Positions 28,146 through 32,214 of a stretch of 64,000 nucleotides of DNA are shown here, piece after piece. The notes beneath the pieces were generated by a model that saw only the letters and a program-made list of their open reading frames with translations, ran no database searches and was not told where the DNA came from. Source of the DNA: Podarcis erhardii (lineage: Eukaryota); assembly GCA_964252035.1 (NCBI GenBank), contig OZ176200.1. One strand, written 5' to 3'. The position numbers and the translations under genes were made by a program. Position 1 is the stretch's first letter; every line of letters begins with the position of its first letter.

Positions 28146-29279
28146 ATGGTTGACCGGGTTCCTGAAGCTGAGAAGGCTCTGGTCTTCCCACAGCTAACAG
28201 ATGAGAACTATAGTTTATGGTCTTTTCGGGTGGAGGCGCTTTTGACCTCTAGGGAAGTATGGACCTATGTAACTGAAGACCCTCCTGACCCTGTAACTAA
28301 TGCTTGGTCGAAAGGAGATGCAAAAGCCAGGGCGATAATTAATTTGGCAGTCAGCGACCAGCAAGTAGTCTATATAAGGAATAAGAAAACTGCCAAAGAA
28401 ATGTGGGACAGTCTTGCAGCAGTGCATGTTAGAAAAGAGTCAGCGTCTGCATTGATGTTTTTCAAGCAGCTGTACCAGACGAAGTTGCAGCCTGGTGGTG
28501 ATTTGGCAGCACACTTGAGACGTCTGGAGGCAATACGCAGCGAATTAATTCGAAGGGACATGGACATACCTGATATTCAGTATGTTTTTATAATTCTTTG
28601 TTCCCTTAACAAGGACTTTGATGGTGTAGCTAGCCAGATATCTGCCGTCCCACCAGCACAATTAACTGTGGAAGGGGTAACAGCAAGATTAATGGGCGAG
28701 TTGGATAGAAGGGAGGCTTGTGCCATAAGCACTCCTATTTCCAGAAGTAATGAGGAACGTCATATGCAAACTTGTGGTGATGCGACTGCATTTAAAGCTG
28801 CAAAGTGTTGTTGGTTCTGCAATAAGCAAGGACATTTTGCAAAGGACTGCAGAGCCAAAAGAAAGCAAAGTACTCCCAAGCCTGTTTCTGCTCGTCAGTC
28901 ACGGGTGTCATCTCAGCAGCCAACATCGCACCGTAAAGACAGAAACGAGCCGCGAGCTTTTCACGCTCGGACTGCAGATCATAAAAGAATTAAAGGTGCC
29001 AAGTGGAATTCTTTTATTGTGGACTCAGGAGCTTCTCACCACGTTTGCAACAATCGAAGCTTGTTTATTTCTTTCGAAGAGGAAATTGGTAATGTACATT
29101 TAGCCAATTCACAAGTCTTGCAGTCACTTGGCAGAGGTACTGTTAAACTTGACTCTTTAAACATTACAATAGCGAACTGCATTTACTGCCCATCAGTGGA
29201 CAATTTATTATCAGTAAGGTGTTTTGCTCGTCAAGGCATAAGTGTGCGTTTCTTAAATTCAATGTGCGAGTTTTTTTGA
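28146..29279 (+). CDS. gag: Copia Gag + aspartic protease
   Basis: First ATG at 28146. Copia N-terminal motif LTDENYSLWSFRVEALL, CCHC knuckle CWFCNKQGHFAKDC, protease FIVDSGASHHVC and NLLS. Ends ...MCEFF-TGA at a T7 run. Confidence 0.92.
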   Translation: MVDRVPEAEKALVFPQLTDENYSLWSFRVEALLTSREVWTYVTEDPPDPVTNAWSKGDAKARAIINLAVSDQQVVYIRNKKTAKEMWDSLAAVHVRKESASALMFFKQLYQTKLQPGGDLAAHLRRLEAIRSELIRRDMDIPDIQYVFIILCSLNKDFDGVASQISAVPPAQLTVEGVTARLMGELDRREACAISTPISRSNEERHMQTCGDATAFKAAKCCWFCNKQGHFAKDCRAKRKQSTPKPVSARQSRVSSQQPTSHRKDRNEPRAFHARTADHKRIKGAKWNSFIVDSGASHHVCNNRSLFISFEEEIGNVHLANSQVLQSLGRGTVKLDSLNITIANCIYCPSVDNLLSVRCFARQGISVRFLNSMCEFF

Positions 29280-32214
29280 GGGGAACAAACGTCTATTGTA
29301 TGCCCGGGACTCTGATGGTTTATATAGACTGTATTTTCGCACCTACTCCCAATTGCCTATAAATTGCAGAGCAGCACAGTCAAGCCAGGGGTTGAGGAAT
29401 GCAAGGCCTCATTCCGGGTGTCTCCACGAGGCGCACAGAATTCTGGGACACTTGAATTTTGCTGATGTAATTAGGACGAAGAATATTGTTAATGGCCTCA
29501 ACTTAAAGCCATGTAAATTCTTTATGCAATGTTTATCCTGTTGCAAGAATAAGATTAAGGTTGCACGCAAGGGTAGGTGCTCAGATAGGAAAGTAACTGA
29601 GCCATTTGAGCGTGTACATTGTGATTTAGTTGGGCCACTCCCACCATCATTAGGAGGTTCTAAGTACTGGCTTACCCTGATAGACCAGTATAGTAGATAC
29701 TGTTGGACTTATGCAATAGCTGAAAAGTCACAAGCATTTGAGAAGTACAAAGTTTTTTGCAACTGGGTAAAAACGCACTTTAACAAACCAATTAAGAACC
29801 TGTTTTCTGACCGGGGCGGGGAATTTGTTTCTGAGGATTTTGAGAAATTCCTGGAAGCGCAGGGGACTACTCATGAGTTATCTTGCCCCCGAAGTCCCTG
29901 GCAAAATGGGCTTGTTGAAGTTGTGCAGCGTGACCTGCAGGCAGGGGTTAAAACGTGCCTGCACGATGCTAATCTGCCCAAAGACTTTTGGGCTGAAGCG
30001 CTTAATGCATTTTGTTATGTTAGAAATCACAGTTATCATTCTGGTTTAGATGTCACCCCCTATGAGAAGCTGTTTAAAAAACGCCCTAATCTGAAATACC
30101 TACGCATTTGGGGTTCAGATGTAATTATGCATTATCCCGCTAAGCAGAAATTGGGTGAGCGTAGTGTCCAGGGTAAATTAATGGGCTACCAGCAGGGGGC
30201 GTACAGAATTTACATACCAGCAACTGGCAAATTTCATATTACCAGAAGCATGATACAAACTGTAAATTGGAATGGAGTTGCTGTTTTCCAAGATACTGAT
30301 GGTATAGATAATACTGAGGAAGAAGAGGAAGAAGCAGCAGCAGCAGCAGGGAATAATGGTGCTTCTGAATTAATGGAAAAAGACAAAAAGCCTGTTGAAT
30401 CTGATAATTTGTTTGATGATTTAAAGTCACAGGCACCCAAGGATAGGTTAGATTCTCTTGAGTTTTCTGATCGTGAGCTTAGCCTACAGGGACCTCTTCA
30501 GTCCGACAATGATGATTTACAACCTGAAACTAGTAGTTCACTTAGTCCCATTAAGTCTGAGGAGTCTGACTCCCCTTCTGGACTAAGACGTTCAGATAGA
30601 AAGAGGCAGAAGCCACAACGATTTGCAGATGAACATTTTAATACTGTGTATGCCAATAAGGTGGTTTTTGAGCCAAAAAGCTACAGTGACGTTCAGAATT
30701 TACCTAAGCACCAAGCTGCAAATTGGTATAAAGCTATGAACTCTGAGATAGCTTCTTTAAAAGAGCATAACACTTGGTCTCTTGTACCACAAACCCCAGA
30801 TATGAGACTTATTGATTCAAAATGGGTTTATAGAGTTAAAATGAATGACAAAAATGAAGTTGTAAGGTACAAAGCAAGATTAGTTGCTAGGGGTTTTCAA
30901 CAAATTCCAGGCGAAGATTATGATTTGTGTTATTCACCAAGTGTAAAATATGAAACAGTTAAACTTTTGTTAAAAGATGCATCACAACGTGGACATTCTG
31001 TTTATCACCTAGATATAAAAACTGCATATTTGTTTGCAGATTTAAAAGAACAAATTTTTATGTGTGTTCCTGAAGGCATAGACGCTGCTGAAGGTTTGGT
31101 ATGCAAATTAAATAAATCCCTTTATGGTCTGCACCAAAGTGGAAGGAATTGGCACCAAACTTTAGCAAAAGAATTGCTGAATATTGGTTTTTCACAAGGA
31201 AAGGCAGACAACTGTGTGTTTATAAAGGAAAGGGCAAACTCTGTGACAAAAATATGTGTGTATGTAGATGACGTGTTAATTTCTACAAAAACTAAACAGG
31301 AATATGAAGAGGTAGTTTCACAGTTACAGAAGAAATTTGATGTGGTGGAATTAGGCATAGCTAAAAATTACTTATCCATGCAAATTGAGAAAGGCAAAAA
31401 TGGATCTTTTCTGGTTCATCAAACTGCAAAAATTGATGACCTTGTTGAAATGCTACGTTTAGAAAATGCAAATGGGAAGGAAACGCCTATGGTGTGTGGT
31501 TTCACCTTTACAGGTGAAGATAAGCCATTTCCTAACAAAACTTTGTATCGTTCTGCTATAGGCAAGCTAAATTTCATTCAAAGAATCTCAAGACCAGATA
31601 TAACTTATGCTTTTCACTTTCTGGCAAAATTTGTGGAAAAACCTACTACACAATGTTTCTCTGCTCTTAAGAGAGTGGTAATGTACCTTAAACATACCAA
31701 ACATTATAGGTTGCAGTTTACATCAAGTATTGACAAAGGTTTTGAAATTTTCTGCGATGCATCTCATGCAGTGGAACAAAATAATTGCAGGGGTGTGTCT
31801 GGTATGGTGTTTTGTTATAATGGTTGTCCGTTTGAATGGAAGTCCCAGACACAAACCATTATTTGTCTCTCCACAACAGAGAGTGAATTATGTGCATGCG
31901 TTCAGGCCACTCGTGATGTAGAATGGTATCTGCAAGTATTCGCAGACCTACAGATGCAAGTAACACTACCAGTTAAAGTTTACCTTGATTCCCAGAGTGG
32001 ACTTGCTATCCTATGTTCAGAAAACAATACGCAGCGCACCAGAGTCTTAAGATTACGTTTGGAGTTTGTAAAGAAATTAATTGCTGACGAAATGATTGTA
32101 TTTGAATATGTCCCAGGTGATAATCAAATTGCGGACATTTTTACAAAAGCACTTCCAAAGGTTACACATGAAAAACATGTACAAAGTATGCTTTATGTTT
32201 TTGTTCCACAATGA
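29275..32214 (+). CDS. pol: Copia Pol: integrase, reverse transcriptase, RNase H (+1 frame relative to gag-PR)
   Basis: Zn-binding HRILGH...CLSC. DDE core HCDLVGP / SDRGGEF / QNGLVE. RT motifs YKARLVARGF, LDIKTAYL, SLYGLHQSGRNW, YVDD. RNase H motifs FCDAS, ESE, YLDS, IADIFTK. No stop over about 980 codons. Confidence 0.95.
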   Translation, partial: FEGNKRLLYARDSDGLYRLYFRTYSQLPINCRAAQSSQGLRNARPHSGCLHEAHRILGHLNFADVIRTKNIVNGLNLKPCKFFMQCLSCCKNKIKVARKGRCSDRKVTEPFERVHCDLVGPLPPSLGGSKYWLTLIDQYSRYCWTYAIAEKSQAFEKYKVFCNWVKTHFNKPIKNLFSDRGGEFVSEDFEKFLEAQGTTHELSCPRSPWQNGLVEVVQRDLQAGVKTCLHDANLPKDFWAEALNAFCYVRNHSYHSGLDVTPYEKLFKKRPNLKYLRIWGSDVIMHYPAKQKLGERSVQGKLMGYQQGAYRIYIPATGKFHITRSMIQTVNWNGVAVFQDTDGIDNTEEEEEEAAAAAGNNGASELMEKDKKPVESDNLFDDLKSQAPKDRLDSLEFSDRELSLQGPLQSDNDDLQPETSSSLSPIKSEESDSPSGLRRSDRKRQKPQRFADEHFNTVYANKVVFEPKSYSDVQNLPKHQAANWYKAMNSEIASLKEHNTWSLVPQTPDMRLIDSKWVYRVKMNDKNEVVRYKARLVARGFQQIPGEDYDLCYSPSVKYETVKLLLKDASQRGHSVYHLDIKTAYLFADLKEQIFMCVPEGIDAAEGLVCKLNKSLYGLHQSGRNWHQTLAKELLNIGFSQGKADNCVFIKERANSVTKICVYVDDVLISTKTKQEYEEVVSQLQKKFDVVELGIAKNYLSMQIEKGKNGSFLVHQTAKIDDLVEMLRLENANGKETPMVCGFTFTGEDKPFPNKTLYRSAIGKLNFIQRISRPDITYAFHFLAKFVEKPTTQCFSALKRVVMYLKHTKHYRLQFTSSIDKGFEIFCDASHAVEQNNCRGVSGMVFCYNGCPFEWKSQTQTIICLSTTESELCACVQATRDVEWYLQVFADLQMQVTLPVKVYLDSQSGLAILCSENNTQRTRVLRLRLEFVKKLIADEMIVFEYVPGDNQIADIFTKALPKVTHEKHVQSMLYVFVPQ

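Follow-up and report, generated by a model that had tools for sequence, protein, structure and literature searches.

A copia-type retrotransposon in the genome of Podarcis erhardii (GCA_964252035.1, contig OZ176200.1) raises the question of how its Pol proteins are made. In the window analysed here, a stretch of 64,000 nucleotides, the gag-protease frame of the element runs into a stop codon directly behind a run of seven T, and integrase follows in the +1 frame. The initial annotation interpreted this as a possible, so far undescribed +1 recoding signal that sets the ratio of Gag-protease to Pol, and gave a 1-bp insertion or read error in the homopolymer as the simpler alternative.

Structure of the element and its reading frames

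The element occupies positions 27651–32608 on the plus strand and is flanked by a 5-bp target-site duplication (27646–27650, identical to 32609–32613). The 5′ LTR (27651–28028, with TG...CA ends) and the 3′ LTR (32231–32608) are 378 bp long each and differ at 0 positions. A purine-rich tract, likely the polypurine tract, was found at 32223–32230, immediately in front of the 3′ LTR.

Two stop-free frames fill the interior. The first extends from 29279 back to 28119, with an ATG at 28146, and the part from 28146 to 29279 codes for gag (capsid with a CCHC knuckle) and protease, as judged from motifs and from the Pfam families Retrotran_gag_2 and Pol_BBD (Pol beta-barrel, protease). The second (29257–32214) is shifted by +1 relative to the first and codes for integrase, reverse transcriptase and RNase H, with rve at amino acids 114–214, SH3_retrovirus and RVT_2 at amino acids 505–746. 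The position of integrase upstream of reverse transcriptase, together with the copia-type gag and reverse transcriptase, places the element among the Ty1/copia LTR retrotransposons. Gene order (gag, protease, integrase, reverse transcriptase, RNase H) and Pfam families are those of Drosophila copia, yeast Ty5 and Arabidopsis EVD.

The junction (29262–29279) reads ATG TGC GAG TTT TTT TGA, with the seven T at 29271–29277, and the premature TGA puts everything downstream out of frame with gag-protease. The T run, the stop and the +1 position of Pol were thus described correctly in the initial annotation. The same holds for its statement that this is the only lesion in an element with identical LTRs, as far as frame-breaking lesions are concerned; all 11 catalytic and zinc-binding motifs checked are present in the window copy.

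Census of the junction in other copies

A DNA search with positions 29120–29440 yielded 40 scored matches out of 163 candidates. The segment is 321 bases long in the window and 320 bases long in each of the other 39. The exact 28-mer containing the seven T occurs a single time in the 1.5 Gb genome. A pattern with fixed flanks and a free middle was found at 87 places, with six T at 85, five T plus one C at one, and seven T in the window copy only; this pattern requires exact flanks, so that a rare, more diverged copy with seven T could escape it. When 30 loci including the window were translated, the frame was open across the site in all 29 others. Of the 86 other copies, 60 (those on contigs C1–C13) were retrieved in full length, and each of them has six T.

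More distant copies gave the same picture. In a protein search with the junction of a natural copy, a single frame covered at least residues 70 to 100 in the alignments of 146 of the best 150 rows (out of 2644 candidates). The remaining four are the window copy itself and three copies with six T that are broken nearby; a hidden subfamily with seven T was not seen among these best 150 scored rows. Ten diverged or frame-split copies (91–99% identical), picked from the tail of this list as the likely exceptions, are all one base shorter than the window copy at this place (13 instead of 14 bases). Where a frame break was visible in them, it was located elsewhere in the vicinity.

The element family therefore reads gag, protease and integrase as one continuous frame, as do copia, Ty5 and EVD, and the window copy alone differs at the run. 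Its private frame break also sets it apart from these three elements. Had a frameshift between protease and integrase been conserved, it would have meant a novel means of setting the proportion of Gag to Pol; for this family, the census excludes it. The initial annotation had itself named a run of six and a continuous frame in most paralogues as the outcome speaking against recoding. This is what was found, and programmed recoding is rejected accordingly, while a 1-bp insertion or read error is favoured by the same counts.

Direction of the change

In a tree of positions 28146–30290, built from the window copy and 59 of the 60 others (L070 was left out), the window copy is nested among copies with six T and pairs with its closest copy, also with six T, with a support of 0.95. 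The paired copies differ by 11 substitutions in 2145 nt. The root of this tree was set at the midpoint, and recombination occurs in the family. Since the window copy is nested in this way, the state with seven T is probably derived and the extra base would have arisen on the terminal branch of this copy. The base of the window at 29267 is shared with three other copies, all of which have six T; the closest copy in the tree is one of these three.

Contigs from the Logan collection were available for comparison. In all four runs consulted (4 of 24 listed, representing at most two samples from two studies), the contigs have one base fewer at 29271; at 29277, almost the whole depth belongs to six-base forms. 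Logan contigs drop rare variants, and at 29267 the full depth of the same runs carries a base other than that of the window, which suggests that they stem from other individuals; for both reasons they cannot serve as a test of the seven-T allele.

Comparison with known +1 frameshift sites

The site has the outward layout of a shifty stop, as the initial annotation noted. A shift-prone codon is followed by a stop, with the downstream frame at +1, as at the antizyme (UCC-UGA or UUU-UGA), RF2 (CUU-UGA) and Ty1 sites, and as in antizyme and RF2 the P-site codon can re-pair and is followed by UGA. UUU-UGA in particular is a natural antizyme shift site that is reported to support +1 shifting in COS-7 cells when placed behind the antizyme 5′ element (PMC1874602). 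The position behind the protease is, in addition, close to the point at which splicing divides Gag from Pol in Drosophila copia (PMC5580714).

This resemblance carries no independent weight. One additional T in front of GA automatically places TGA in frame behind TTT, and UUU can re-pair in any run of U; considered at the level of the sequence, the look of a shifty stop is therefore not beyond chance expectation. It follows as a general caution that whenever a T run before GA gains one base, the result necessarily looks like a +1 shifty stop.

Conservation across orthologues characterises the antizyme, RF2 and Ty1 sites, which often have stimulators as well, whereas the site studied here is found in 1 of 87 anchored copies and in 0 of 10 diverged ones. 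A stimulatory RNA structure on the 3′ side is a frequent though not universal companion of programmed +1 sites; a pseudoknot-free fold test of the 80 nt downstream of the run revealed nothing unusual, with a z value of 0.23 and 115 of 200 shuffled sequences folding as well. Among animal retroelements, moreover, pol is seldom in the +1 frame (a survey from 2003, cited by PMC5009743, counted 2 of 51), and a literature search, mostly of titles and abstract openings, returned no title on a frameshift between protease and integrase in copia elements. A programmed shift at UUU-UGA that sets the Gag-protease to Pol ratio throughout the family is hence extremely unlikely, as the seven T are missing from 86 of 87 copies, the closest ones included.

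Leakage confined to the window copy is a separate matter. Because antizymes do use UUU-UGA for +1 shifting, a small accidental leak at this position is possible. That a real seven-T allele leaks enough Gag-Pol to act as an accidental, newborn frameshift setting the Gag-protease to Pol ratio is, on the other hand, very improbable. If true, it would offer a snapshot of retroelement recoding arising from one slippage event.

Copia elements with a single open reading frame are described as obtaining their excess of Gag either by splicing (Drosophila copia, EVD, BARE1) or by turnover of Pol (Ty5) (PMC5580714). For the family described here, splicing similar to that of Drosophila copia is our leading guess.

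Age of the family and frequency of broken copies

Both LTRs are whole in 54 of the 60 copies. Among these 54, 27 show no LTR substitution, and the mean is 0.81 per 378 bp, which characterises the family as young. The two LTRs are fully identical in 21 copies, among which ten have one long frame, three contain a frameshift or stop and eight carry a large deletion. Three of the 13 undeleted copies in this class are thus broken elsewhere in the element; a lone lesion in a copy with identical LTRs is unsurprising for this reason, and identical LTRs should not be taken as a guarantee of an intact gene.

Length changes at other coding homopolymers were seen in 3 of 2487 observations at four-base runs, 2 of 975 at five-base runs and 1 of 110 at six-base runs. 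The rate climbs with run length, and the single event in a six-base run is also a gain of one base. The six-base value comes from two other runs of this length, the run at 29271 being excluded, where exact flanks counted only four copies.

Origin of the extra base

Taken together, we conclude with a probability of about 0.96 that the seven T represent a private +1 homopolymer indel in one copy of a single-frame copia family and not a recoding signal. By this reading, the window copy would have gained one T relative to its sister copies between protease and integrase, so that its frame stops at the TGA. The extra base could be due to slippage, be it in transcription, in reverse transcription or in replication by the host, or to an error of the assembly consensus.

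A real mutation in the animal, caused by slippage in the last round of retrotransposition or soon after insertion, is somewhat favoured. Frameshifts by reverse transcriptase are reported to concentrate at homopolymers in the case of HIV-1 (PMC3185545). The window copy carries three private substitutions across the element besides the indel, indicating that its branch did accumulate private changes. The family is rich in private frameshifts, with 31 types of frame-breaking indels over the 60 copies, although some of these are large events or lie at alignment edges. Furthermore, the run was read as six bases at 86 other places, which indicates that assembly errors are rare in this context. The seven T were present in no listed contig of the four Logan runs, which speaks against a real mutation within the limits of these contigs given above.

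A homopolymer error of the long-read consensus is the somewhat less probable origin; the copy of the animal would then be like its sisters. Homopolymer indels are the main residual error of long reads, both changes seen at six-base runs are gains of one base, and the identical LTRs leave little time for a mutation after insertion. The 86 six-base runs in other copies weigh against such an error.

If the seven T are real, the window copy would make Gag and protease but little or no Pol, and would be mobile only with Pol supplied by other copies. Such movement is conceivable since the copy retains its LTRs, its primer site and its purine tract. As matters stand, the finding is of little wider importance, a single private indel in a young copia family that has many of them.

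Primer-binding site and affiliation

A primer-binding site of 15 nt (28034–28048) begins five bases past the 5′ LTR and is complementary to positions 25–39 of a tRNA-Met(CAT) gene, i.e. to the anticodon arm. In two of the three genome loci scanned, the matches start 24 bases into tRNA-Met(CAT) genes annotated by ARAGORN. We take these genes to code for initiator tRNAs. Complementarity of the primer site to the anticodon arm of the initiator tRNA-Met is the sequence feature of the Hemivirus type. The match to tRNA-Met(CAT) is shared with copia and Ty5, for both of which half-tRNA priming has been described (PMC1181622). This vertebrate copia element would accordingly appear to use half-tRNA type priming.

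The Mtanga clade is described as the only Copia clade of terrestrial deuterostomes and as much expanded in squamates (PMC11889832). The present element resembles it in being a Copia element of a squamate host.

A shared internal deletion

An in-frame internal deletion of 804 nt (approximately 31300–32103) is common to 18 of the 60 copies (L031–L090), while the window copy is undeleted. The deletion is bounded by a 7-nt direct repeat and removes the end of reverse transcriptase and most of RNase H. Between anchors, its size is 804 nt in 13 copies, 808 nt in four and 806 nt in one. An origin as a copy of a spliced RNA was rejected, as GT-AG ends were found in none of eight possible registers.

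The carriers are young copies dispersed across the gag-integrase tree, yet variants at 31218–31272, adjoining the junction, are linked to the deletion (e.g. 12 of 18 carriers versus 2 of 40 other copies), and linked variants were found only beside the junction. This combination suggests that the deletion had one origin and was spread by recombination. The carriers are likely a non-autonomous class.

Other features of the family, genome and window

In the linker between integrase and reverse transcriptase, a GAA/GCA repeat coding for poly-Glu and poly-Ala (30300–30355) varies in length among copies by multiples of three. At position 27965 and the matching place of the 3′ LTR, both LTRs of the window copy lack four bases that are found in 26 of 29 other copies. 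The presence of this gap at both ends indicates that it was inherited via an RNA template.

Among the best 150 rows of the protein search (out of 2644 candidates), 18 have an identical score, 78% identity and one TAA. They recur approximately 115–160 kb apart near the ends of contigs C7, C13, C15 and C16, and are likely one decayed copy within a duplicated subtelomeric block. In L094, the one checked, four bases are missing at window position 29316, a gap also present in the contigs of all four Logan runs.

Contig C19, which measures 30 Mb (about 2% of the genome), carries 22 of the 87 anchored copies, many of them more diverged. Such an enrichment would fit a sex chromosome with low recombination. 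Finally, fragments of a non-LTR reverse transcriptase, presumably related to BovB/RTE LINEs, were found on the minus strand of the window at 37244–38487.
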